Assembly (NCBI GenBank): GCA_002748065.1
Contig: PDRJ01000025.1
Location: 22,454-86,453, forward strand
Reading direction: 5' to 3'
Origin: Bacteroidota bacterium
GTDB taxonomy: Bacteria; Bacteroidota; Bacteroidia; Bacteroidales; BM520
DNA length: 64,000 nt
The notes beneath the pieces are model-generated. The model saw only the letters and a program-made list of their open reading frames with translations. It did not search any database and had not been told where the DNA came from. Shown here piece by piece: positions 6,759-64,000 of this stretch. A program made the position numbers and the translations under genes. Each line of letters begins with the position of its first letter. Within the stretch, counting starts at the first letter, position 1.

Positions 6759-6810
6759 GGCTTATGTTGTCTGTCTTTTGAAGAGATATGGGCTTTGTCC
6801 CCATAAAAAA

Positions 6811-6835
6811 AGGCCGGGAAAAAACTTCCCGGCCT
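6811..6835. terminator. Bidirectional hairpin terminator
   Basis: aggccgggaa-aaaac-ttcccggcct, a 10-bp perfect stem preceded by an A-run and followed by tttat, between convergent genes. Confidence 0.7.
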
Positions 6836-6858
6836 TTATGTGATAAGGGCTTCCCCTC

Positions 6859-9800
6859 TTAGCGATTGATAATTACTTTTTTCATGGCACTATTTCCACC
6901 CTCTGTTTGGATAGAAATAAAATAGATGCCATTGCTTAGAGTACTTATATCCAAGGTCGTGGTAACTCCTTTTACTACATTCACGTTCATGACCTTTGTG
7001 CCCGTGGTATTGTAAAGGAGAATAGCAGTTGCTTCCTCTATATTAGCGGTCTCGACGTAGAGCCTGTTTTGTGCGGGATTGGGATAGATCTCCCAGTTTG
7101 CAGTCTCACGTTCATTAATTCCTACACTGCTGTAAACGATTACTTGTTTGGATTCGGAGTAGTGTCCTTCGCCACACTCGTTGATTCCGCATGCACTAAG
7201 CAGGGCAGTCCCTTTAAATGCGGTATTCCACTGTACGGTTGCCGTGGTACTCTCCCAGGAGACCTCTCCTGCTTCGGAAGGAGTCAGGGTGAAGTTGTAT
7301 TCGGTGACCCCTGCGATTTCCTGGATTGTAAATGGAGAGGAACTCTCTACATAGGTATCTACGGAGTCAGCACCCATGGGGGCTGCAGGTGCCAGTGTCA
7401 GGGCTTTTACATTGATAAATAGCATCTCAGATTGCGTATCACCACAGTCGTTGGTGGCGATAATTCGCAATACGGCCTCTCCGCTGAATGCTGCATTCCA
7501 ACTTACGGAAGCCGTGAGGTTATCCGCTTCTACGGTTCCTGCCTCACTGGGTTTAATGCTCCAACGGTAAGAGGAGGCGTTGGGGCTTCCTTCAGAGGTA
7601 TATTGCTCCTGACTGTTGGCACACACTTCACTATTTCCTTCTACCGGAGCCGGCATCTCCGGCCCATCATGGAGGTAAAGGGTGGTGAAGTCGTTTACGT
7701 TACCACAGCCTGAGAAGGCCATTAGAGAGAGTGTTACAGAGCCATTATTAATGTCATTTTCTCCCGGCACATAGGTGGTCTCCAGGGCTGTAGCGTTGGT
7801 GAAGGTTCCGTCTCCGGAGCTTGTCCACTTAACGCTTTCATAATCTGTTCCTGTGGCGAGAAGCTCGAAACTCTCTTCTTCACAGATATGTCCATCTTCT
7901 CCTGCCTCAATGGTCGGTGTTCTCCCGAAAGAGAGGGTCATCTCATCCGTATATTGTTGGGTGTCGTTGCCTGTAACCTCCAGTGTGATAATAACACTTC
8001 CATTTTCCAGATCCTCTTGGCTGGGGGTGTAGGAGGCATTTTCCTGTGTAGCATCGTCAAATGTTCCTGTGCCGGAGGTACTCCACTGTAGTGTGGCGTA
8101 GTTGGCCACTTCCGGTTGTAGGGTATAAGGCTCATTGTCGCAGGCATAATCATCTTCTCCGGCATAAGCGATGGTACGCATCTCCGGAGGAAGGATGATA
8201 AAGTCAAGCCATAGGCAGTCGGAACCTGCCGTGGCCATATAGTCTTTTGAATAATCCCACTTGAAGGTGTGTGCGCCTTGAGAGACGGGTGCCTTAAATT
8301 GAGTCCACTCTTTTTCTCCACTCCACTCTGCTATGACATTATTATCAATATAGAAACGTACGATATCATAGTTGGCTTCCGTGGAAATTTTGTAGTAGAA
8401 AGAGATGGTATCATCTCGTATCACTTCATAGTCGATGGCCATGGAGGTATTTTGATTATCTCCAATGTTGGCGCTTTGGGCAGAGAAACTACCTTCATAG
8501 ACCTCTCCTTCCGTAATGGTCCAGTTGCCTGAGCCTTCAAAATACCAAGGGAAAGAGGAGAAGTCGCCTGTTTCGAAATCTTCAACGGTTATCCCAATGG
8601 TGGAGGCGAAGGTTTTTTCAAACGGATATTCTCCGGTAGATCCATTAAATACGAAATTGGCCAACGTACCGATGGGAGTACTTGCATCGACATGCACGGT
8701 GAAGGTGAGTGTTGTGGACTCTTCCATTTCGATGGGACCATGAGTAGCGGTTGTGTTGTCAAAGGAGATATAGGGCGATGAAGAGGAGAGTTCTGCCATA
8801 ATATCCTGGGAGATGGCATGTCCTATGTTGGTTACGGAGACCATAAGATTTACGGTCTCTCCCGCATCCAGACGGCCATTGCCATTACCTGATGCATCGT
8901 CGATGGCCATTCCATTTACTTGTATGGTGGGTGCATAGGCTGTAATGGAGAATTTGCTTGGCCAGGTATCTGTGCCGTCAGTAGAGAGAAGGTCGAAATG
9001 GATCTTCTCTCCATCAGGAATGTGGGCGGCTACCTCAAAGCTAAAGGCCTCTTCTTCCGTTTGTGAACCCCCTTCGGGAATCGTCTCGAAGGTGGCTTGC
9101 TCATCGGTAATGGTGACGTATTCATTTTCTGATGTGAGCGTTACCACAACATTATTTGCTGCTTCGATTCCCACATTCTTCATGGAGAGATCCATGGTGG
9201 CGCTCTCCCCATACTCTAGGGTTCCATTTCCATTTTCATCATTGAGTACGCTACTTTCGTAGATGACATAGGGGCCTTCCGGCGGAATGCAAGAGATGGT
9301 TTCGTAGATGGTTTGGGTATTGAAGGCAGTGACTACCAGTTTGACATCGCCTGCTTCCAGTTCATTTTCGATGGTAACTTCTCCATTCTCATTGGTATAT
9401 CCTGAATAGACGTGCTCTTCTTGTGAGATTGATACCAGTGCATTTGCAACCGGAACACCATCGGATGTTACCGTGGTTGCGTATGAAGAGCCCAGTAATA
9501 TCACATTATTGCTTACGGTTATGGGAGCTGGAGGTGCGGTACGAATTTGTACAGAGGCATCGCCAAAGAGTACCCATGTTTGGATGGTCTCAAGGTCTTC
9601 GCTTCCTTGTGATTCACTGTACATTAAGACCATTCCATTGGCCGTAATGGATCCAAAGGTGGTTCGTTGTTCATTATTGTTGATTCCACTTCCGGGGTTA
9701 TTGTCATAATCGTATCCACCGATGAGGACATCATTCATATAATCCTGTCCGCGCATGGGGGGTTGCCAGGGCTGTGGGATTGTGGCCATCAGTGTGGCAA

Positions 9801-54214: not shown

Positions 54215-55597
54215 ATGAGTTATCGTGAAGTACAAGATACCATGGGGGTGATGCATGTTCCTGAGGCGTGTTATTGGGGAGCACAGACCCAACGTTCGTT
54301 GGAGAATTTTAAGATTGGCCAGGAGAAGATGCCGCTGGAGCTGCTCTATGCGCTGGTGTTGGTGAAAAAAGCCTCAGCCATGGCGAACCATGAGCTTGGA
54401 AAGTTGGAGCTGGAAAAGCGTGAGCTGATTGTGGAGGTGTGTGATGAGATTCTTGCCGGTCGCCATGATGCCCACTTTCCCCTGCGGGTATGGCAGTCGG
54501 GTTCCGGCACACAAACCAACATGAATGTCAATGAGGTGATTGCCTTTAGGGGTAATGTGTTGGCCAACGAGAGGGGGATCTCGGTACGGCTTCATCCCAA
54601 TGATGATGTAAACAGTTCTCAGAGTACCAATGATACCTTTCCCTCGGCCATGCGAATTGCTGTGTACACCCTTATCACCGGGAAATTAATCCCTGCGCTC
54701 TCTCTCCTGGAGGAGGAGCTTCACCGGAAGGCCCTTGCCTTTGCTGCCATTGTGAAGACGGGACGAACTCACTTAATGGATGCTACTCCCCTGACCCTGG
54801 GGCAGGAGGTTGACACCTGGGCATCGCAACTTTCGCACGGGCTCTCCCGTCTACGGAAGATCATGGCATCTCTCCTGGAGCTTCCGCTGGGTGGTACCGC
54901 CGTAGGCAATGGTCTCAATACTCCGGAGGGTTATGATGGGGTGGTGGTTCGCTATGTGGCGGCCCTGTCGGGTGTGCCGTTTCTCCCTGCCCCGTCTAAG
55001 TTTGAGGCCATGGCCTCCCACGACGCCCTGGTGGCATGTCATGGTGCCTTGAAAGGCCTTGCCGTGAGCCTTATGAAGATCGCCCATGATGTCCGCTTGT
55101 TGGGCTCTGGCCCGCGTTGCGGCATTGGAGAACTTCGTTTCCCTGCCAATGAACCGGGCTCCAGCATCATGCCGGGGAAAGTGAACCCCACCCAAGCCGA
55201 AGCACTCTCCATGGTGTGTGTACAGGTGATCGGCAATGATACAGCCGTCTCTTTGGCCGGAGCAAATGGCCATTTACAGCTGAATGCTAATGCTCCGGTG
55301 ATCATCCTCAATATGATCCACTCCATCAACCTGCTCTCCGATGCGGCCGACTCCTTTGCGCGAAAGGTGGTGGTAGGACTGGAGGCTTCCCAGGAGAAAA
55401 TCACCGAACATCTTAATAATTCATTGATGCTTGTGACCGCTCTCAACCTCCATATCGGGTATGAAAAGGCGGCGCAGGTTGCCAAACTAGCCTTCGAGAA
55501 ACAACTCACCTTAAAGCAAGCGGCCATGCAGCTGGGGTATCTCTCAGAGGAAGCCTTTGACCGGATTGTGGACCCCAGGAAAATGGCAGGCTTGTAA
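54215..55597 (+). CDS. fumC: Class II fumarate hydratase
   Basis: Start at MSYREVQDTMG. WQSGSGTQTNMNVNEV and GSSIMPGKVNPTQAEAL are FumC-type rather than AspA-type. Confidence 0.92.
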   Translation: MSYREVQDTMGVMHVPEACYWGAQTQRSLENFKIGQEKMPLELLYALVLVKKASAMANHELGKLELEKRELIVEVCDEILAGRHDAHFPLRVWQSGSGTQTNMNVNEVIAFRGNVLANERGISVRLHPNDDVNSSQSTNDTFPSAMRIAVYTLITGKLIPALSLLEEELHRKALAFAAIVKTGRTHLMDATPLTLGQEVDTWASQLSHGLSRLRKIMASLLELPLGGTAVGNGLNTPEGYDGVVVRYVAALSGVPFLPAPSKFEAMASHDALVACHGALKGLAVSLMKIAHDVRLLGSGPRCGIGELRFPANEPGSSIMPGKVNPTQAEALSMVCVQVIGNDTAVSLAGANGHLQLNANAPVIILNMIHSINLLSDAADSFARKVVVGLEASQEKITEHLNNSLMLVTALNLHIGYEKAAQVAKLAFEKQLTLKQAAMQLGYLSEEAFDRIVDPRKMAGL

Positions 55598-55598
55598 A

Positions 55599-55772
55599 TA
55601 GAGTCCGTCTATAACGTCCGACTTCTTCGTTACGCTTCTCTTCCAAATGGTTCTTTCGGCTTTGCTCAACACATCGCATTTACCCTAGTAAACTCCCCTA
55701 TTTCAGCCTTCGCAAGCCTCGAATTCGAACGTTCTATACAGCCTCTTCTCAAAACGCTGACTTTATGGACAG
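55599..55772 (+). mobile_element. R1 MITE-like repeat, copy A (174 bp)
   Basis: Aligns without gaps to the reverse complement of 58842-59015, with 9 mismatches in 174 and the last 86 nt identical. 14-bp terminal inverted repeats (c)CGTCTATAACGTC / GACTTTATGGACAG. No ORF. Confidence 0.7.
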
Positions 55773-57379
55773 TCTTGTGGGGTAGAGGAAGAGACGGGGA
55801 TCGTCCGCACGGGGAGATAGACCATTCCTTTACAGAGGTAAACATACTTTTTTTTGGCAATCTTTCGGCCTCGCCTGATGCAGATGGAGTCATAACAGGT
55901 GATCTCTTTAAAAAGTCCCTTGTACTGAGTATCTGGTTTGAAGTAATCCTGAGGGTCGTGGATGGCCCAGCCATTCATCCCCCTTTGGAAGGGGCCTCGC
56001 TCTTCGTTGATCCAGGCGTATTTGTGGAGTCTTGGCAGGAGGTTTATTCCCATTACCTCGATGCCTGCGTCGTGCGCAAAATAGTATTCGTAGTTGGCGG
56101 CGGGAAACCAACGGTGTGAAAAGATGGGCGCCTCTGCTTCCATCACTCCCTCTGCAAGAGCTCTTTGTCGAATTGCGCGAAACTGTCGTCCCTCTTCATC
56201 CCAGCCGTAAAGGTCGAGTGTGGGATCCGGAAGGTGGTAGGTGGTTAAGGGGATAAAACCGGTTTTGATCTGAATCCAGGAGACGGTTAAAAACAGACAT
56301 AGTGAGAGGAGAGCGGTGCGAATCCCCCGGGGAATAAGGTTGTGGTTTTGCTGTTTCCAATGATCAAAACGGCAGGCTGTGAGGATCATCAGGGGGAAGA
56401 ATGCCGGACCCGTCCAATGGGGAAGGGTTCGCCTTGAGAGGGCTATGCCCCAAAAGAGCAGTATCATGGGGATACTCAGCAGCAGAAGGAGCCGCTGCGT
56501 GTTTTTGGGACAAAAGGATTTTCCTCTTACGAGATGGATCAGGGTGATCACCATCAGCACCACCACCACCGGATTGTTGTAGAAGAATTCGCCCACGATC
56601 TCCAGCAGAAAAAAGTCCAACCGGATACCCTCAAAGGTGGCCCTGCTGCCCTGAAAGGTGAAGCTGACAAAATGATACTGCCTATTCCAGAGGATCACCG
56701 GGGAGAAGAGAAGGAGGGAGAGAAGTCCTGAGAGGTAGAGGGCAATCTTCTTTAACCAGGGCCTGTTGTAAAGTAGCACGTACAATCCGACCCCCGCCCA
56801 CAGGTAGGTGGCTGTATACTTTGAGAGCATCCCCAGGCCGGTGAAAAGGCCAGCCAATAGCATCTTCTTTCCCGCTCCTCGCTCTTCCGGGTTCCCGGTA
56901 AGCGGATCGTGAAAGAAATAGAGCGCCGCAAGCCAGAAAAGCATCTGGGGCGCATCAGGAAGGATGAAGAGCCCCGCAATGATGGAGGCATAACCCGAGG
57001 CCGAGAAGAGCAATGCCGCATAAAAGCCGGCTCTGGGGGAACGGATTTTTTCCGTTAAGAGGTAGAGGAACCAGGTGGCTCCAGCAGCTGATAAAATGGC
57101 GCTGAGACGGATGAAAATCTCGTGGCGTAGAAGCAAATTCAGGGAGGAAAGTTGAATAAATAGCCCCGTCATCGGGGGATGGTCGAAGTGGCTCCAGTCG
57201 GGAAACATGGCGTAAAGGATGTAATAGACCTCGTCATTGCCAAGATCCGTAGTCGCCGCTGGAAAGAGCTTAAGAAGGAGAGCCAGCCCTATCACCACCA
57301 GGGTTAACCGACGAAATCGTTTCCGTTGCTGATCTTTTTTTATCGCCATGTGATCCATGTTCAATTCTCCATTCGTCAT
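55763..57379 (-). CDS. GT-C fold glycosyltransferase, family 39 / ArnT-PMT-like
   Basis: 538 aa, polytopic. The first loop carries LGNDEVYY (DE motif) followed by FDHPPM, typical of ArnT/PMT_2 enzymes. The start (57379 or a downstream ATG) is uncertain. The last three codons (TGT CCA TAA) lie inside R1 copy A. Confidence 0.85.
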   Translation of the reverse strand: MTNGELNMDHMAIKKDQQRKRFRRLTLVVIGLALLLKLFPAATTDLGNDEVYYILYAMFPDWSHFDHPPMTGLFIQLSSLNLLLRHEIFIRLSAILSAAGATWFLYLLTEKIRSPRAGFYAALLFSASGYASIIAGLFILPDAPQMLFWLAALYFFHDPLTGNPEERGAGKKMLLAGLFTGLGMLSKYTATYLWAGVGLYVLLYNRPWLKKIALYLSGLLSLLLFSPVILWNRQYHFVSFTFQGSRATFEGIRLDFFLLEIVGEFFYNNPVVVVLMVITLIHLVRGKSFCPKNTQRLLLLLSIPMILLFWGIALSRRTLPHWTGPAFFPLMILTACRFDHWKQQNHNLIPRGIRTALLSLCLFLTVSWIQIKTGFIPLTTYHLPDPTLDLYGWDEEGRQFRAIRQRALAEGVMEAEAPIFSHRWFPAANYEYYFAHDAGIEVMGINLLPRLHKYAWINEERGPFQRGMNGWAIHDPQDYFKPDTQYKGLFKEITCYDSICIRRGRKIAKKKYVYLCKGMVYLPVRTIPVSSSTPQDCP

Positions 57380-57441
57380 TGCCAGTTGCTTCGCAAACTT
57401 TGAGTTTCATCCGTCTGTATCTTAATAGCCGTTGGCTATTG

Positions 57442-57591
57442 GCCTTTAGTTTGGGTTAATGGCAACGTTCACAAAAAGTTATCACTCAACTTCCGTCTTC
57501 CGACTTCTGTCTTCTGTCTTCGGACTTCGGTCTCCCGACTTCCGACTTCCGACTTCATTACCATATCGCCGCATTATCACATTACCACATT
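57442..57591 (-). repeat. R2 composite repeat, copy 1
   Basis: Read on the minus strand: TGGTAATGTGATAATGCGG, then 10 heptads, then TTTTTGTGAACGTTGCCATTAACCCAAACTAAAGGC. The last block matches 61190-61225 at 33 of 36 positions. Confidence 0.65.
57490..57559. repeat. Imperfect 7-bp tandem array, 10 units (CTTCCGA consensus)
   Basis: cttccgt cttccga cttctgt cttctgt cttcgga cttcggt ctcccga cttccga cttccga cttcatt. Confidence 0.85.
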
Positions 57592-57616
57592 AAAAAAATT
57601 ACTAATTGCTAATTCC

Positions 57617-58747
57617 CTATCGGTAGAAGTCGAAAATTGCCTGGATCACATAATCGATCTCCTGTTCCGTTAAGGCGTAGAAAAGGGGCAATCGGATAAG
57701 GGCCTGAGAGAATCGCTCCGCATGGGGTAGCGAGGAGGTGCCGTATGTTCGGCGGTAGTACGGACTGTGATGCAATGCCTGGTAGTGGAAAACTGCCTGG
57801 ATCCCCCTGCTATGCAGATGGTGAAGAAGCCGATCTCGCTCTTCTCTTGATTTGGCTACCATATAAAAGAGGTGTCCGTTAAGGCTGGCAAAAGCGGGAA
57901 GTTGGGGCAATAGAAGGTTTTCGCGTTCTTGCAGCGGCCTGAGCCCGCTGGCATAGCGTTCCCAATGGCGAATCCTTCGTGCCTGAATGGGGTCAACCTC
58001 CTCCATTTGAGCACAAAGGCACGCTCCGGTGAGGTCGGAGGGAAGGAAGGAGGAACCCACATCAACCCACTCATACTTTTGCACCTCTTTGCGCTGAAAG
58101 GCTGCTCTGTTAGTGCCCTTCTCCCAGATGATCTCTGCCCGTTCACACAGGCGCTCGTCGTTAACGAGCAGCATGCCTCCCTCTCCGGTGATGATGTTTT
58201 TTGTTTCGTGGAATGAGAGCGCTCCGAGCTGCCCAATACTTCCCAGGGGTTTGCCCTTGTACGTTGCTTCAATGCTGTGGGCAGCATCTTCCACCACCTT
58301 CAGGCCGTGGGCTTCAGCAATGGCAAGGATGGCCTCCATATCGTTGGCTACACCGCCGTAGTGCATAACCAGGATCGCTTTGGTTTGGGGGGTGATCAGG
58401 CGCTCCAATGTGCCAATATCCATGTTGGGATGCTCTGGCATACTGTCAACGAAGACCACCCTGGCACCCCGCAGCACAAAGGCGTTGGCCGAGGAGACAA
58501 AGGTGTAGGACGGCATGATGACCTCGTCACCCGGCCCGATCTCAAAAAGGAGAGCCGCCATTTCCAGGGCATCGGTGCAACTGGTGGTGAGCAGGCTCCT
58601 GGTCACGCCATACCGGTTACAGAATAGCGCTTGGGCGCGCCGTGTGTAGGGACCATTGCCCGAGAGTTGCCCCTGCATGGCCGCCTGTACAAGGTATTGT
58701 TGTTCCTTTCCGGTGAAATGAGGCTTGTTGAACGGTATCTGCATCAT
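57617..58747 (-). CDS. DegT/DnrJ/EryC1-family PLP aminotransferase, WecE-like (dTDP-4-amino-4,6-dideoxyhexose synthesis)
   Basis: 376 aa. MMQIPFNKPHFTGKE, SCTDALEMAALL, IMPSYTFVSSANAFVLRGARVVFVD and SFHETKN (PLP lysine) closely recall E. coli WecE/RffA. Confidence 0.88.
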   Translation of the reverse strand: MMQIPFNKPHFTGKEQQYLVQAAMQGQLSGNGPYTRRAQALFCNRYGVTRSLLTTSCTDALEMAALLFEIGPGDEVIMPSYTFVSSANAFVLRGARVVFVDSMPEHPNMDIGTLERLITPQTKAILVMHYGGVANDMEAILAIAEAHGLKVVEDAAHSIEATYKGKPLGSIGQLGALSFHETKNIITGEGGMLLVNDERLCERAEIIWEKGTNRAAFQRKEVQKYEWVDVGSSFLPSDLTGACLCAQMEEVDPIQARRIRHWERYASGLRPLQERENLLLPQLPAFASLNGHLFYMVAKSREERDRLLHHLHSRGIQAVFHYQALHHSPYYRRTYGTSSLPHAERFSQALIRLPLFYALTEQEIDYVIQAIFDFYR

Positions 58748-58765
58748 CCCCTATCCTTTTTTAGA

Positions 58766-58773
58766 CAAAGGTA
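58766..58773 (-). promoter_or_regulatory. Candidate -7 promoter box (TACCTTTG) for the aminotransferase gene
   Basis: TAnnTTTG match on the minus strand, 18 nt upstream of the ATG at 58747, between R1 copy B and the gene. Confidence 0.4.
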
Positions 58774-58841
58774 ACGCTTTTCCCCCTCTCGTTTCATGAT
58801 TGCATGAAAAAAACCTACGGCGTTTAGCCGCTATACTAGTG

Positions 58842-59015
58842 TCTGTCCATAAAGTCAGCGTTTTGAGAAGAGGCTGTATAGAACGTTCGAATTCGAGGCT
58901 TGCGAAGGCTGAAATAGGGGAGTTTACTGAGGCAAATGCGATGTATTGAGCAACGCCGAAATAACCATTTGGAAGAGAAGCGTAACGAAGAAGTCGGACT
59001 TTATAGACAGCCTCT
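58842..59015 (-). mobile_element. R1 MITE-like repeat, copy B (174 bp, inverted relative to copy A)
   Basis: Reverse complement equals copy A at 165 of 174 positions. TIRs CTGTCTATAAAGTC / GACTTTATGGACAG pair over 14 bp (one G-T position). No ORF. Confidence 0.75.
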
Positions 59016-59069
59016 ATGCTAGCCGCTAACTGTGAGGGGTTGGTCTCTACAGCACAACCGATTTCGTGG

Positions 59070-59109
59070 CCGCATTATCACATTACCATATTATCCCCAT
59101 TATCACATT
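59070..59109 (-). repeat. GTGATAATG-motif block (19-nt identity with 57569-57587)
   Basis: CCGCATTATCACATTACCA is identical at 59070-59088 and 57569-57587. A second cattatcacatt follows at 59098-59109, directly after the era stop. Confidence 0.6.
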
Positions 59110-59113
59110 GTCT

Positions 59114-59989
59114 TTAAATCTCATACCCAAACCGTTTCAAATACTGCTCGTTGTCACGCCAGTTTTTAAGCACCTTTACCGTGACCTCCAGAAAGGCCTT
59201 TTTCCCGGTAAACTGTTCGATCTCTTTCCGCGCCCTGCTGGCCACCCGCTTCATGGCTTGCCCCTCTTTGCCCAGCAGAATCATCTTTTGAGACTCCCTC
59301 ACCACGTAGATGATGGCCGTGATTCTGTCGATGGTTGCTTCTTCCTTATATTCCGTAATGGCCACTTCGCAGGAGTAGGGGATCTCCTTTTTGTAATAGG
59401 TGAGGAGTTCACCTCGGATAATCTCCGACACAAAGAAGCGCAACGGCTTATCGGTAAGCTCCTCTTTGCCGTAATAGGGCGGGGATTCCGGTAGGTTCTC
59501 CAGCAGAAATTGAGAGATGGACTCCACGTTGAATTTGTGTTGTGCTGATATGGGGATAAGATGGCTCTGGGGCAGTAACTCCTGCCAGTACCGCATCTCC
59601 TCCATCACCCTCTCCTGTTTATGCAGGTCAATCTTGTTTAATGCAATGACGAGGGGTACCTCGGTTTTCTTGAGCCTCTCCAACACTTGCTCCTCCAGCG
59701 TGCGGTCGCCGGTTTCCACCACCAACAGGAAGAGATCCGCATCGGTGAAGGCTCCCTCCACATAGTTCATCATTGATTGTTGTAAGGAGTAGGCCGGTTT
59801 CAACATGCCCGGCGTGTCCGAGTATACAATTTGGTAATCCTCCCCATTTACGATGCCCATGATGCGATGGCGGGTGGTTTGTGCCTTTGCATTAGTGATG
59901 GAGAGGGTCTCCCCAATCAAGACATTCATCAGGGTTGACTTTCCCACGTTGGGTTTTCCTATGATATTGACAAATCCGGCTTTGTGCAT
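59114..59989 (-). CDS. era: GTPase Era
   Basis: 291 aa with G1 GKPNVGKST, G3 DTPG, G4 NKID and a C-terminal KH domain. Confidence 0.95.
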   Translation of the reverse strand: MHKAGFVNIIGKPNVGKSTLMNVLIGETLSITNAKAQTTRHRIMGIVNGEDYQIVYSDTPGMLKPAYSLQQSMMNYVEGAFTDADLFLLVVETGDRTLEEQVLERLKKTEVPLVIALNKIDLHKQERVMEEMRYWQELLPQSHLIPISAQHKFNVESISQFLLENLPESPPYYGKEELTDKPLRFFVSEIIRGELLTYYKKEIPYSCEVAITEYKEEATIDRITAIIYVVRESQKMILLGKEGQAMKRVASRARKEIEQFTGKKAFLEVTVKVLKNWRDNEQYLKRFGYEI

Positions 59990-60128
59990 GATGCTGTTTT
60001 TTACTGAAATTTTCCCTGCAAAGGAACAAAAAATGAGAGAATCCCTGTTTCTTGCTGCTTTTTTTGGAGAAATGGGGGGAAAAAGGATTTTTTTTCGGCT
60101 ATTTCATACGTTTGTAACGAAAAAGAGC

Positions 60129-60136
60129 TATCTTTG
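60129..60136 (+). promoter_or_regulatory. Candidate -7 promoter box (TATCTTTG) for tRNA-fMet
   Basis: TAnnTTTG match 40 nt upstream of the tRNA 5' end. A TTTG at 60111-60114 could be a -33 element, although the spacing is short. Confidence 0.4.
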
Positions 60137-60176
60137 CACTCCTGTCTCGAGAGATTGAGACTGTGATTACACAGAT

Positions 60177-60248
60177 TGCGGGGTGGAGCAGTGGTAGCTC
60201 GTTGGGCTCATAACCCAAAGGCCGGTGGTTCGAATCCATCCCCCGCTA
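60177..60248 (+). tRNA. Initiator tRNA-Met (anticodon CAT)
   Basis: 72-nt cloverleaf. Acceptor TGCGGGG/CCCCGCT, D arm GAGC-AGTGGTA-GCTC, anticodon arm TTGGG-CTCATAA-CCCAA, T arm GGTGG-TTCGAAT-CCATC. Three G:C pairs abut the anticodon loop and position 1:72 is unpaired, both initiator hallmarks. Near-colinear with E. coli tRNA-fMet. CCA is not encoded. Confidence 0.9.
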
Positions 60249-60257
60249 CGACAGAGA

Positions 60258-60290
60258 AGAAGGGTCAGAAGGTACCCTTCTTTTTTTTTT
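60258..60290 (+). terminator. Rho-independent terminator after the tRNA
   Basis: agaagggt-cagaaggt-acccttct followed by a run of at least 10 T. Confidence 0.8.
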
Positions 60291-60332
60291 CTCTCTTTTT
60301 GAACTTGTCCGGTGTGGGAGTGTTGTAATGTT

Positions 60333-61109
60333 ATGCGCATGAAAAAAATTCTCTGGTTGTTTTGCCTTACAATGATGGCTCTGGTAGGAAGGAATCAAAC
60401 CCTGTTGGAGGAGGCGGTTAATATTCAGGTGAAGGATGTGGATGGAAATACCTATGCTCTGTTTGATATATTGGATGCGGGAAAGCATGTCGTTATCGAT
60501 TTTTACATGACTGGCTGTACCTATTGTCAGCTGTATGCTCCCCATATCCAGGCCTCTTATGAGCATTTCGGAGAGAATGGCGGTGATGTTTTCTTTATGA
60601 CCATTGACAAAGGCTCCACCAACTCCGATGTGAGAGCTTTTGATCTTGAATATGGCATCACGATGCCCTCCATTAGTGGCCTGGAAGGTGGTGGCAACAA
60701 ATCGCACAGCATCTTTGAGATTCAATCTACTCCTACGGTTATTCTTATCGCCCCGGATTATACCATCCTTGAGCAGGTGGTTTGGCCCCCTTCTACGGAA
60801 AATATCGATTCGGTGTTGATTGAGGCGGGGGTGATGCCCATGGGAAGCCTCTCCCTTGCCCCTCCCCCACAAAGCCGCGTCTGGCCCAATCCCTCTTCAG
60901 GCTCCCTCTCCCTCTTTCTGGTGGATGAAGAGCCGGAGGTATCGGTGCATCTCTTCGATGCGATGGGGCGTAAACGATTTTCTACCACCGTGGAGACTCA
61001 TCGTGTCGTCTCCCTCAACGGACTCTCCGGACTCTCCAGGGGCATATATTGGCTTCAAGCCGAGAACCATCAAGCTATCTTCTGCACAAAAAAAATAGTG
61101 CTGCAATAG
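60333..61109 (+). CDS. Thioredoxin-fold (TlpA/redoxin-like) protein with T9SS C-terminal sorting domain
   Basis: Signal peptide MRMKKILWLFCLTMMALVG, CxxC in FYMTGCTYCQ, and T9SS tail VWPNPSSGSLSLFL...GIYWLQAENHQAIFCTKKIVLQ. The start is 60333 or 60339. Confidence 0.8.
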   Translation: MRMKKILWLFCLTMMALVGRNQTLLEEAVNIQVKDVDGNTYALFDILDAGKHVVIDFYMTGCTYCQLYAPHIQASYEHFGENGGDVFFMTIDKGSTNSDVRAFDLEYGITMPSISGLEGGGNKSHSIFEIQSTPTVILIAPDYTILEQVVWPPSTENIDSVLIEAGVMPMGSLSLAPPPQSRVWPNPSSGSLSLFLVDEEPEVSVHLFDAMGRKRFSTTVETHRVVSLNGLSGLSRGIYWLQAENHQAIFCTKKIVLQ

Positions 61110-61115
61110 AGGCGT

Positions 61116-61225
61116 AGTGTGATTATGCATGAAGAAATGGAGTTGGAAGTCGGAAGTCGGAAGACGGAAGACGGGAGTTGGAAGACAATTTTTTGTGAAC
61201 ATTGCCATTAACCCAAGCCAAAGGC
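61116..61225 (+). repeat. R2 composite repeat, copy 2
   Basis: GTGTGATTATGC, then 7 heptads, then TTTTTGTGAACATTGCCATTAACCCAAGCCAAAGGC. It has the same module order and the same orientation relative to the downstream gene as copy 1. Confidence 0.65.
61137..61185. repeat. Imperfect 7-bp tandem array, 7 units (CGGAAGT consensus)
   Basis: atggagt tggaagt cggaagt cggaaga cggaaga cgggagt tggaaga. This is the reverse-complement register of the 57490-57559 array. Confidence 0.8.
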
Positions 61226-61241
61226 TACAAAATAGAAACAG

Positions 61242-61649
61242 ATGAAAAATTATGGAATTGCGTTATTGTTGGGGTTTATCGCTCTTTTTTTAACAGTTGC
61301 TTGTGAACCGGTAGAGGATGAAACGCCTGATAGGGAAAAGTTTATTGGAGAGTGGACCTGTACCGAGGCCAACAGGAAACTGCCCGCTTACCGGGTAGCT
61401 ATCTTAGAGGATGGCCAAGTGGAGGAAAATGTGTTGCTCCAGAATTTCGGACAACTGGGAAACCAAGCCAAACCTTCAGGACAGGCTTCCGGCAATCACC
61501 TCACCGTCTCGCCCCAGTCTTGTCTTGATGACTCGTGGCAGGTGGAAGGTACCGGCGTATTGGTTACCAACAAACGCATGGACTGGAATTACAAACTCAA
61601 CGATGGTTCTACGCTGTACGATATTACAGCTGTTTACGACCGGAATTGA
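61242..61649 (+). CDS. Small hypothetical lipoprotein
   Basis: 135 aa with lipoprotein signal MKNYGIALLLGFIALFLTVAC. Beta-rich, and no family recognised. Confidence 0.6.
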   Translation: MKNYGIALLLGFIALFLTVACEPVEDETPDREKFIGEWTCTEANRKLPAYRVAILEDGQVEENVLLQNFGQLGNQAKPSGQASGNHLTVSPQSCLDDSWQVEGTGVLVTNKRMDWNYKLNDGSTLYDITAVYDRN

Positions 61650-62058
61650 TGGTGTCGGTATCTCCCCGCTTCGTATGAAGGGTTGACGCCATCTTGTTAA
61701 GATTTTCAATTACCTTATCGTACATCCCGGTAATGGTTTTGGGATCTTTATGGTAGTAAGATAGGCTTTTTTGAAATGTTTCCCGGGTGATTGCATATTT
61801 CTCGAACAGCAGATAGTAGAAGGCGTTGGTGTGTTCCAGCGTGTTTTTATGTTGCTTTTGTACCCATTTGATGCTACTCTCGGTCAGAAAACCTTCGGTC
61901 ATAATCAGGATCATACTGTCCTTTGAGATGACGCCTGTTGGCGGTGTTGTGGCGTGTGTGGAGGGTTTGGGTTTACAACCGATAAGAGTGGCAAGAAACC
62001 ATAAGGTGATCCCCATGAAGGCTGTGATTCGGCGTATTTTTGTTTTAGAGAAGGTCAT
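61624..62058 (-). CDS. DUF4296-domain lipoprotein
   Basis: Start taken at MTFSKTKIRRITAFMGITLWFLATLIGC (lipobox). ISKDSMILIMTEGFLTES...FEKYAITRETFQKSLSYYHKDPKTITGMYDKVIENL follows the DUF4296 pattern. Confidence 0.75.
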   Translation of the reverse strand: MTFSKTKIRRITAFMGITLWFLATLIGCKPKPSTHATTPPTGVISKDSMILIMTEGFLTESSIKWVQKQHKNTLEHTNAFYYLLFEKYAITRETFQKSLSYYHKDPKTITGMYDKVIENLNKMASTLHTKRGDTDTINSGRKQL

Positions 62059-62119
62059 AACAGCATATGCATAAAGCTGATTGAACAGAGAGGGACTCTT
62101 ACGAGGATGCGTTTCCCTT

Positions 62120-64000
62120 TTAATTTCCCACATCCGATAGGTACTTGATGCGCATGAGACGAATCTCCATTTCCGGGTAGTCCTCCTCTCCCAACTCTCT
62201 CAAAGCCTCTTCGATAGAGTCACTCTCTGCTTCGCGGAAGTAGTCCAGAATATCCTCCTGATTGTAAGGATCGACCAGTTCATCCACATAGTAGGAGAGG
62301 TCTAACCTTGTTCCACTCTCTACAATTCGTTCAATTTCACCCAGTAACTCCTCCCTGGTGAGGTTTTTGGCCACAGCAATATCGTCCAGGGAGAGCTTTC
62401 TGTCGATGCTTTTGATGATATAGACCTTGAGTCCCGATTTATTCACCACCGATTTCACCACCATGTCGTGGGCACGGACAATCTCATTCTCTTCCACGTA
62501 GGTCTTGATAAGGTTGAGAAAAGGTTCGCCATATTTTTGCGCTTTTCCGGCGCCTACTCCCGTGATGTTGGTGAGTTCCTCCATGGTGATAGGGTATTGG
62601 ATGGCCATATCTTCTAACGAGGGATCCTGGAAGATGACAAAGGGGGGCAGGTTCTCCTTTTTCGAAATGGCCCTCCGCAGGTCTTTGAGCATTTTGATAA
62701 GGTTTTTGTCGCTGGCACCTCCCTTTATTGATCCCTCTTGAGAGGTGTCATCCTCTTCGTAATCATGATCTTCTGTAAGCATTACCCGGTGAGGTGATTT
62801 AAGGAATGCTCGCCCCTTTTCCGGTACGAGTAGGGTCCCATACATCTCAATATCCTTCTCCAATAAGCCCAGGATCAGGCATTGGCGAATTACGGCATTC
62901 CAGAACTTATCCGAGTGTTCACGCCCCAGTCCAAAGGATTGTAATTGATCATGCTTATACGATTTCAGGCTTGCCGTATTTTTTCCGATAAGGATGTTGA
63001 TGATGTGTTGAGGTTTAAAGAGCTCTTTGGCTTCAATCACCGTCTGTAAAACGATTTTAGCCGCCTCCTGGCCATCGAACTGTTTTTTGGGATGGAGGCA
63101 GTTGTCGCAACTTTCGCAGTTCTCCGTATGGTAGGCCTCTCCGAAGTAGTGAAGGAGCTGTTTTCTTCTGCAGATGGCACTTTCAGCATACGCTACGGTT
63201 TCCTGAAGGAGTTGTTTGGCGATCTCCTGCTCTGCAACGCCCTTGTTTTTGATGAATTTTTCCAGCTTTACGATGTCGTCGTAGCTGTAGAAAGCGATAC
63301 ATTTTCCCTCTCCGTCGTCGCGTCCGGCACGGCCGGTCTCCTGGTAATAACCCTCCAAACTCTTGGGGATGTCATGGTGGATGACAAAACGTACGTCCGG
63401 TTTATCAATGCCCATTCCAAAGGCGATGGTGGCCACAATGACATCAATCTCCTCCATCAGGAACATATCCTGATTTTTCTTGCGCGAAGCAGAGTCAAGC
63501 CCGGCATGATAGGGGAGAGCCTTGACCCCATTAACGACCAGGGTCTCGGAGAGCTCCTCCACCTTTTTCCGACTGAGACAGTAGATGATTCCCGATTTGT
63601 TGGGATGCTGTTTGATGAAGCGGATAATCTCTTTGATCACATCCTTGTTTTTAGGACGAACCTCATAGTAGAGATTCTTTCGGTTAAAGGAGGATTTGTA
63701 GAGTGTCGCATCATTCATCTCTAAGTTTTTGATGATGTCTTGACGCACCTTAGGCGTTGCCGTGGCCGTAAGTGCAATTACCGGCACCTTCTGTCCAATG
63801 GTCTCAATGATGGGGCGGATTCTGCGGTACTCCGGCCGAAAGTCATGACCCCACTCGGAAATACAGTGTGCCTCATCAATGGCATAAAAGGAGATGGTGA
63901 TCTGTTTCAGAAACTCAATGTTGTCCTCCTTCGTGAGCGATTCCGGAGCCACATAGAGCAGTTTGGTCTTCTTTTGCAAGAGATCCTCTTTTACTTCTGT
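62120..64000 (-). CDS. recQ: ATP-dependent DNA helicase RecQ (5' end outside window)
   Basis: The frame stays open to position 64000 (TEVKEDLLQKKTKLLYVAPESL). DEAHCISEWGHDFRPEY, helicase C domain, RQC Zn cysteines CRRK...CESCDNC, HRDC (FVIFQDPSLEDMA) and a C-terminal extension. Confidence 0.93.
   Translation of the reverse strand, partial: TEVKEDLLQKKTKLLYVAPESLTKEDNIEFLKQITISFYAIDEAHCISEWGHDFRPEYRRIRPIIETIGQKVPVIALTATATPKVRQDIIKNLEMNDATLYKSSFNRKNLYYEVRPKNKDVIKEIIRFIKQHPNKSGIIYCLSRKKVEELSETLVVNGVKALPYHAGLDSASRKKNQDMFLMEEIDVIVATIAFGMGIDKPDVRFVIHHDIPKSLEGYYQETGRAGRDDGEGKCIAFYSYDDIVKLEKFIKNKGVAEQEIAKQLLQETVAYAESAICRRKQLLHYFGEAYHTENCESCDNCLHPKKQFDGQEAAKIVLQTVIEAKELFKPQHIINILIGKNTASLKSYKHDQLQSFGLGREHSDKFWNAVIRQCLILGLLEKDIEMYGTLLVPEKGRAFLKSPHRVMLTEDHDYEEDDTSQEGSIKGGASDKNLIKMLKDLRRAISKKENLPPFVIFQDPSLEDMAIQYPITMEELTNITGVGAGKAQKYGEPFLNLIKTYVEENEIVRAHDMVVKSVVNKSGLKVYIIKSIDRKLSLDDIAVAKNLTREELLGEIERIVESGTRLDLSYYVDELVDPYNQEDILDYFREAESDSIEEALRELGEEDYPEMEIRLMRIKYLSDVGN

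Follow-up and report, generated by a model that had tools for sequence, protein, structure and literature searches.

The window, by which we mean the whole stretch of 64,000 nucleotides that was analysed, contains two copies of a composite repeat referred to here as R2. Copy 2 (61117-61241, plus strand) lies between a gene for a thioredoxin-like protein and a small lipoprotein gene, and copy 1, on the minus strand, sits between a DegT-type aminotransferase gene and a GT39 (PMT_2) gene. R2 occurs in two forms, types A and B, described below, and is accompanied by a second repeat family, R1. The features are as follows.

1795-1852, partial copy of R1
55598-55772, minus strand, copy of R1
57421-57614, minus strand, R2 copy 1, a near-full unit beginning 3 nt after the DegT stop codon
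58830-59023, plus strand, copy of R1
59069-59109, minus strand, stub of the R2 family made of octads only (five TGATAATG/TGGTAATG units), which begins 5 nt past the Era GTPase stop codon
60340-61109, plus strand, thioredoxin-like gene with a T9SS C-terminal sorting domain (AhpC-TSA, Por_Secre_tail), co-directional with the lipoprotein gene and called here the Trx-T9SS gene
61117-61136, plus strand, 5' remnant of the type-B leader in R2 copy 2 (GTGTGATTATGC and ATGAAGAA), aligning with the ACGGAGTGATTATGGGGAC module of other type-B copies
61137-61185, plus strand, purine-rich heptad array of copy 2, seven (C/T)GGAAG(T/A) units, the same in the window and in a second assembly (L001)
61186-61225, plus strand, type-B junction CAAT and core block TTTTTGTGAACATTGCCATTAACCCAAGCCAAAGGC, the core of at least 36 family members
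61226-61247, plus strand, type-B tail TACAAAATAGAAACAG with ATGAAA, recurrent in the family; its ATG at 61242 is the lipoprotein start codon
61242-61649, plus strand, small predicted lipoprotein gene (135 aa, N-terminus MKNYGIALLLGFIALFLTVAC; orthologues of 84%, 61% and 60% identity)

The spacer from the Trx-T9SS gene to the lipoprotein gene (61110-61241) measures 132 nt and is nearly all R2, the nhmmer envelope of copy 2 being 61114-61248. The initial annotation had described copy 2 as seven heptads followed by a 36-nt block, with an ATG 16 nt further on, and this description holds with small corrections. GTGTGATTATGC occupies 61117-61128, where a start at 61116 had been given, and is immediately followed by 8 nt, ATGAAGAA (61129-61136), that had been omitted. 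The heptads (61137-61185) read atggagt, tggaagt, cggaagt, cggaaga, cggaaga, cgggagt and tggaaga, and are followed by CAAT, by the 36-nt block (61190-61225) and by the 16 nt TACAAAATAGAAACAG that lead to the ATG at 61242. Tandem Repeats Finder reports arrays of period 7 with 6.3 copies in copy 2 (61141-61184) and 9.7 copies in copy 1 (57489-57556).

The 36-nt block occurs exactly twice in the window, at 61190-61225 (plus) and 57442-57477 (minus), against an expectation of 0.00 from shuffles. The two blocks are identical at 33 of the 36 positions and differ at three, and each copy is oriented toward the next gene on its own strand, both as originally claimed. The heptad pattern GGAAGWCGGAAGW, with at most one mismatch, has nine matches in the window where 0.30 are expected, all of them within the two arrays. 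The window holds no R2 copies beyond these two.

A 28-codon upstream ORF (61125-61211, plus; MHEEMELEVGSRKTEDGSWKTIFCEHCH) starts in the leader remnant, crosses the heptads and stops in the block. It is judged to be incidental, the core block of copy 2 having stop codons in all three frames that end any frame; any change in heptad number would therefore still end upstream translation in the block. The product of the lipoprotein gene has no Pfam family match.

Copy 1 comprises AATTAG heptads (57614-57597), octads (57592-57556), about ten GGAAG-type heptads (57556-57489), the core block (57477-57442) and a hairpin, AATAGCC-AAC-GGCTATT (57442-57422), that is without a T-run. It is a hybrid with a type A 5' part and no T-run terminator, and the GT39 gene begins 62 nt past the block. 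The homologues of the GT39 protein are mostly 511-530 aa long and the longest ORF in the window 538 aa. As the homologues are shorter, the true start is probably an in-frame ATG downstream of 57379 (57349-57379, minus), for example the one giving MAIKKDQQRK, and the spacer after copy 1 would be longer to that extent. Another ORF, of 46 codons, begins with the ATG at 57410 in the R2 tail and is not in the GT39 frame.

Upstream of the Trx-T9SS gene is a tRNA-Met (CAT) gene (60177-60249, plus) with two canonical TAnnTTTG boxes before it, at 60107 and 60129, and a terminator after it (60253-60286) made of a strong 13-bp hairpin and a T-run. No canonical box precedes the Trx-T9SS gene itself, which comes next.

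The block was searched for with the pattern GTGAACNTTGCCATTAACCC in species-representative genomes and in metagenome contigs. In the species-representative genomes the only match is a chance one in Pseudoalteromonas (L004; the same sequence in L008 and L010), and the family is hence not traced outside this population. Among the metagenome contigs, GTGAACNTTGCCATTAACCC is found at 19 loci, of which 16 are real, all in two related assemblies (PDWI, PDWJ). The real loci match the window in tetranucleotide composition, with r of 0.70-0.96 as against 0.27-0.28 for the chance matches, and from composition alone all R2 loci would seem to derive from one genome. Allowing up to four mismatches, 36 blocks are counted at 17 loci including the window, and nhmmer with one full unit as query gives about 50 unit matches over the loci; as the loci were chosen by exact match to the block, block conservation is overstated and these copy numbers are lower bounds. 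Two short-read contigs begin upstream of the lipoprotein ATG, L002 by 37 nt and L003 by 22 nt, which in our reading places their ends inside the block, as expected of a multi-copy repeat.

The full R2 unit has a modular organisation. It opens with AATTAGS heptads and an AT-rich stretch ending in ...TTTGTTTTAAATG, followed by two to several dozen octads (TGGTAATG/TGATAATG) and GGAATGATTATAGGGAC. The next module is made of 2 to about 19 GGAAGWC heptads and leads through a junction into the core TTTTTGTGAACGTTGCCATTAACCCAAGC. The unit ends with TAAAGGC/TAACAGC heptads, a hairpin AGCYCC-GKA-GGRGC, GACACC and a T-run. The octad module is also seen alone or expanded, in runs of several hundred nt (L018 ~6800-7250, L011 3986-4400, L019 ~500-750); the reverse strand of the module is open in all frames, which gives rise to spurious ORF calls.

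Type A is represented by about 28 of the 36 blocks, in which the hairpin and T-run follow within 25-60 nt and no gene is reached. Type A units frequently form head-to-tail arrays of 2-6 units (L012, L013, L016, L017, L022), many of them downstream of genes. In L009/L012, L011, L017, L022 and window copy 1 the co-oriented gene upstream has its stop codon next to the array or inside it; in L022 the first AATTAG provides the TAG that stops the gene. By our count, 9 of the 13 arrays with a known upstream neighbour are downstream of a co-oriented gene and 4 are divergent, which, with few loci and a simple longest-ORF gene caller, is a trend and not proof. The hairpin of type A covaries. Its partners are paired in 98.4% of the cells, the central pair being CG in 19 copies, UA in 13 and UG in 2, and when the partner is slid by 1-3 columns as a control only 46-59% of the cells remain paired.

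Type B comprises eight copies, copy 2 included. They have the junction AATTTTTT, lack the hairpin and end in ...AAACAGATGAAA. Five precede functionally mixed genes, two are without a downstream gene and one is the hybrid copy 1 before GT39. The tail GGCTACAAAATAGAAACAGATGAAA recurs in L006, L011/L023, L014 and L021, and homology ends after ATGAAA. In four type-B copies the ATG of the tail opens an ORF of 131-409 aa, and the products are mutually unrelated: the lipoprotein in the window, a SAM methyltransferase in L006, an HTH/HicB-like protein in L011/L023 and a DUF1302 outer-membrane protein in L021. The gene behind the L015 copy begins 155 nt further on, and no plausible downstream gene follows the copies in L007 and L014.

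No inverted repeat of 9 nt or more is present in window positions 61100-61255, and none is found at the ends of the full unit at L022:1660-1935. The possibility that R2 is a MITE was dropped for want of terminal inverted repeats, which in the neighbouring R1 measure 27 nt. When the type-B flanks were inspected for target-site duplications, some copies had strings resembling ATGA(A/G) close to each end; a consistent duplication was not seen. Of 28 copies, 27 retain a 4-bp stem that closes a loop with TTTTTGTGAAC, despite CG, UG and UA variation; 11-13 of 500 shuffles reach the observed values, so that the stem is weakly supported. Too short and weakly above its controls, it was set aside as a basis for structure. 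The conserved core and this stem hint at some constraint, the apparent conservation being inflated by the choice of loci by exact match.

The second family, R1, is MITE-like: its elements measure about 175-195 nt and are bounded by terminal inverted repeats of 27 nt (CTGTCCATAAAGTC...GACTTTATAGACAG). It is present in at least 24 copies across the loci, which besides the window include L005, L006, L011, L013, L015, L019-L021, L023 and the R2-free relative L024. The two full copies of the window are 95% complementary and form an inverted pair 3070 nt apart that flanks the DegT-R2-GT39 cassette. One of them, R1a, takes up precisely the space between GT39 and the fumarase gene, which are convergent, and contains the TAA (55765-55763) with which GT39 ends. 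R1 adjoins R2 in L005 (163-387), L011 (5585-5684), L013 (1426-1580), L021 (1812-1961) and L023 (1238-1416), five adjacencies that amount to four independent places, L011 and L023 being two versions of one locus. Either both families occupy the same permissive spacers or R1 prefers to insert into R2.

The difference in heptad number between the two copies had been taken as a sign that the array expands and contracts, and the comparison of assemblies bears this out. Over 12.76 kb the window and L001 (GCA_002747205.1) have 0 mismatches and a single gap, a one-heptad indel by which one GGAAGTC unit of copy 1, at window position 57550, is missing in L001. Among the paralogous copies the number of heptads varies between 2 and about 19. 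L009 and L012 represent a single locus and show 4 mismatches over 6.46 kb; from our own reading of the unit maps L012 appears to have two more whole units than L009. Between L011 and L023 the main differences are found in the adjacent R1 element and a G-run. As at contingency loci, the repeats lie on the sense strand before a gene, the distance to its start codon being 57 nt for copy 2 and 110 nt for copy 1. Polymorphism of tract length is observed for copy 1, and the array of copy 2 has the same length in the two assemblies.

Three loci encode homologues of the lipoprotein (L024, L025 and L026), and none of them has R2 upstream. The L024 protein is 84% identical and its gene has the same ATGAAAAATTATG start, with TACCTTTG 21 nt upstream. 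The proteins of L025 and L026 are about 60% identical, and the spacer of 51-61 nt before their genes carries TATCTTTA, which is one mismatch from TAnnTTTG. The order of Trx-T9SS gene and lipoprotein gene is retained in L025; in L026 an unannotated gene is in the Trx position. Since these R2-free relatives have a box and the window spacer is nearly all R2 without one, a type-B element has replaced an ancestral spacer with a promoter-like box, up to a pre-existing start codon.

L024 (PDTZ01000131.1) belongs to the same MAG accession, GCA_002747205.1, and represents a second lipoprotein-DUF4296-RecQ region relative to window 61242-64000, with 84% protein identity and a different upstream gene. 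The GCA_002747205.1 bin appears to mix two related genomes. Two relatives of the GT39 locus, L027 and L028 (1793-3010), have an extra gene of 405 aa between DegT and GT39 that overlaps the GT39 start and has no Pfam match; it is absent from the window, where R2 copy 1 is found instead. L028 also has five GGTGRAA heptads (969-1003) just past the DegT stop codon, and purine-rich heptads at the DegT-GT39 position are accordingly not unique to the R2 sequence.

The initial annotation had proposed that the block could be a promoter or operator common to two envelope genes. The results do not support this, as the block forms the core of a repeat that is found 36 times or more across 17 loci. Listing the genes downstream of the block, as a check for a regulon, leads in about 28 of the 36 cases to a hairpin and T-run and not to a gene, and the genes behind type-B copies are functionally mixed. 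Those behind the gene-proximal copies encode a methyltransferase, an HTH/HicB-like protein, a nucleotidyltransferase-like protein, the DUF1302 outer-membrane protein, the lipoprotein and GT39, and no enrichment for surface functions is seen among them, as against the suggested bias toward envelope genes. The remark that no TAnnTTTG -7 box accompanies the TTTG of the block proved correct: none is present in 61110-61241, nor in copy 1. Canonical boxes occur nearby, upstream of DegT (58773, minus) and of tRNA-Met (60107 and 60129, plus), and the motif is thus present in this genome. The repeat nature of the block, the copies that end in hairpins, the mixed genes and the lack of a box together go largely against a shared control element, the matter of read-through aside.

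Copy 2 has no canonical promoter, no terminator and no stable RNA fold. There is no terminator-like site between 61109 and 61242. A scan for the sigma-70 consensus, which is unsuited to Bacteroidetes, detected nothing in the element, and by eye the block fits neither the sigma-54 -24/-12 spacing nor a CRP-type TGTGA-N6-TCACA palindrome; an AACGTT palindrome in the block is, again by eye, broken in copy 2 (AACATT). Rfam at the gathering threshold identifies only tRNA-Met in the window. At E-values up to 1 it gives no match in L022, L013 and L021, and in window 55400-61700 the tRNA together with two chance matches to eukaryotic lncRNAs. The z-scores of the predicted RNA folds against shuffles are +0.44 for copy 2, -0.61 for copy 1 and +1.02 and +0.48 for two full units. 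A structured cis-regulatory RNA was rejected, these folds being no better than shuffles.

We consider it reasonably probable that R2 is a mosaic repeat, specific to its lineage, and serves as a transcribed spacer or leader; a role as promoter is not supported. According to this proposal a conserved core of about 45 nt would be set amid tandem modules of 7 and 8 nt whose length changes by slipped-strand mispairing. Full type A units would lie at the 3' ends of genes, where the GC hairpin and T-run would most likely serve as an intrinsic terminator, and whole units would multiply into head-to-tail arrays by unequal recombination. Copy 2 would be a truncated type-B derivative that has lost the octads and the hairpin and has displaced the ancestral Trx-T9SS/lipoprotein spacer with its promoter-like box. 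Most likely it would be a passive stretch, transcribed, unstructured and rich in purines, that acts as spacer or 5' leader. The Trx-T9SS gene, the likely source of read-through into copy 2, and the lipoprotein gene would share one transcript, with no promoter or operator in R2.

An active role in expression might, alternatively, explain why the type-B tail is retained as far as ATGAAA and why the copies are so strictly co-oriented with the genes behind them. Type-B copies may be mobile promoter-leader cassettes for the gene that they abut, where the block would be a site for an alternative sigma factor or, with its TTTTTG, a degenerate -7 box. Such copies run in the direction of the next gene and stop precisely at its ATG, and the window element has displaced a spacer with a promoter-like box known from relatives and left the gene intact. 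A comparable element, BrickBuilt of Porphyromonas gingivalis, has promoter activity (PMC4596501). However, TAnnTTTG is absent from 61110-61241 and the TTTG of the block has no correctly spaced partner. Transcripts started in about three quarters of the blocks would be mere stubs, with a hairpin and T-run reached in 25-60 nt, and the type-B copies of L007 and L014 have no plausible gene to serve. Moreover, all the type-B copies that precede a gene have a co-directional upstream gene, from which read-through is sufficient. We regard such a promoter function as unlikely.

Equally doubtful is a role of the heptads in tuning, whereby their number in the 5' UTR would set the expression of the lipoprotein and GT39 in steps of 7 nt, by analogy with hmw1A. 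In its favour are the one-heptad allelic indel of copy 1, the spread of heptad counts among copies from 2 to about 19, the intergenic position of the arrays on the sense strand and the precedent of a heptamer repeat in a 5' UTR (PMC12721329). Against it, the copy 2 array is identical in both assemblies and the same arrays recur in type A units that precede no gene. The purine repeats have no predicted hairpin partner (z +0.44 and -0.61), as opposed to the long hairpin of hmw, and the downstream genes are not enriched for surface functions.

Type A units may also be viewed as independent small-RNA genes that have a -7-like box ahead of the octads and are closed by a terminator past the core. 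Their GGA-rich heptads and core would titrate a putative RNA-binding factor in the manner of Csr/Rsm, with the type-B leaders as its targets. By our count 6 of about 25 units have a match to TAnnTTTG immediately ahead of the octads, and the majority of the remainder come within one mismatch or a 1-nt shift of it. Each unit ends in the covarying hairpin and T-run, the RNA is predicted to be unstructured and so to expose repeated GGA motifs, and the core is common to type A and type B copies. On the other hand, the -7-like box is degenerate in most units and, again by our count, only 13 nt separate it from the nearest TTTG, which is shorter than the roughly 19 nt usual between TTTG and the box in Bacteroidetes. 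No Rfam family is matched, and repeat numbers are so variable that selection on a defined RNA seems weak. We take this view to be quite improbable. An extension of it to a complete titration circuit of hypermutable repeats, in which type A sRNAs would decoy the putative factor from type-B mRNA leaders, including those of the lipoprotein and GT39, has a still smaller chance of being correct; if true, slippage of heptads would retune both decoy capacity and target affinity, and would represent a Csr/Rsm-like circuit in Bacteroidales.

The mosaic repeat that we favour can be compared with several known systems. Among described elements the nearest is BrickBuilt, a minisatellite-containing MITE from Porphyromonas gingivalis (Klein et al. 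2015, PMC4596501), which is present in 19 copies per genome with a tandem-repeat body of 1 to 22.8 copies. Judged by the names of the closest homologues of GT39, R2 belongs to the same bacterial order. Like BrickBuilt, which is strictly intergenic, R2 is intergenic, lineage-restricted and multi-copy and has a conserved leader and tail flanking a variable tandem body, a likeness of architecture only, with no sequence similarity. Partial forms without leader or tail are common in BrickBuilt as in R2. BrickBuilt has a single 23-nt repeat and small terminal inverted repeats and lies 49-591 nt from coding sequences (PMC4596501), whereas R2 has four separate modules of 7 or 8 nt and no terminal inverted repeats, and abuts stop and start codons. 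The covarying terminator-like hairpin and the head-to-tail arrays of whole units also distinguish R2.

Intergenic heptanucleotide repeats are of more than one kind, the STRR sequences of Cyanobacteria being an example. Intergenic TAACTGA heptamers have been described in Beggiatoaceae, Cyanobacteria and some Bacteroidetes (MacGregor 2015, PMC4679880), and long simple sequence repeats by Mrazek et al. 2007, as cited in PMC4679880. R2 shares with the TAACTGA-type repeats its intergenic tandem heptamers of variable copy number, often forward and a few nt from a start codon, and the absence of a common function among the downstream genes. It differs in its unit, GGAAGWC, in that the heptads are one module of a larger composite with a unique core, and in that most copies are at the 3' ends of genes.

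The BIME/REP elements of enterobacteria and the BOX elements of pneumococci are modular extragenic mosaics with a palindromic hairpin module and variable internal modules, often located in the 3' untranslated regions of co-transcribed genes. R2 resembles them in these general terms and has no sequence relationship to them; its modules are microsatellites, in contrast to the alternating palindromes of BIME.

The best-studied functional case of a heptamer leader is the (ATCTTTC)n repeat in the 5' UTR of hmw1A/hmw2A of Haemophilus influenzae, whose length slips (PMC12721329). R2 is similar in having a 7-nt repeat subject to slippage before the start codon of a surface protein. The hmw repeat is a single locus and pairs with a G-rich arm to form a hairpin processed by RNase III (PMC12721329); the heptads of R2, unlike it, are dispersed and no such hairpin is predicted for them. 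On the whole R2 fits the description of a mosaic extragenic repeat bearing simple sequence repeats, outside any named family.

What appeared to be a common control element is a dispersed repeat, and the lipoprotein and GT39 genes should therefore not be linked as a regulon. As a composite repeat R2 is a clear-cut case: this element of an uncultured Bacteroidales-like lineage has four separate microsatellite modules, all of them hypermutable. It takes up intergenic spacers precisely, from one gene's stop codon to the start codon of the next; before an intact gene it has supplanted a promoter-like spacer, and short-read assemblies break at it. Should the length of the heptad arrays affect expression, this organism would have a mutational dial, moving in steps of 7 nt, built into dozens of its genes.
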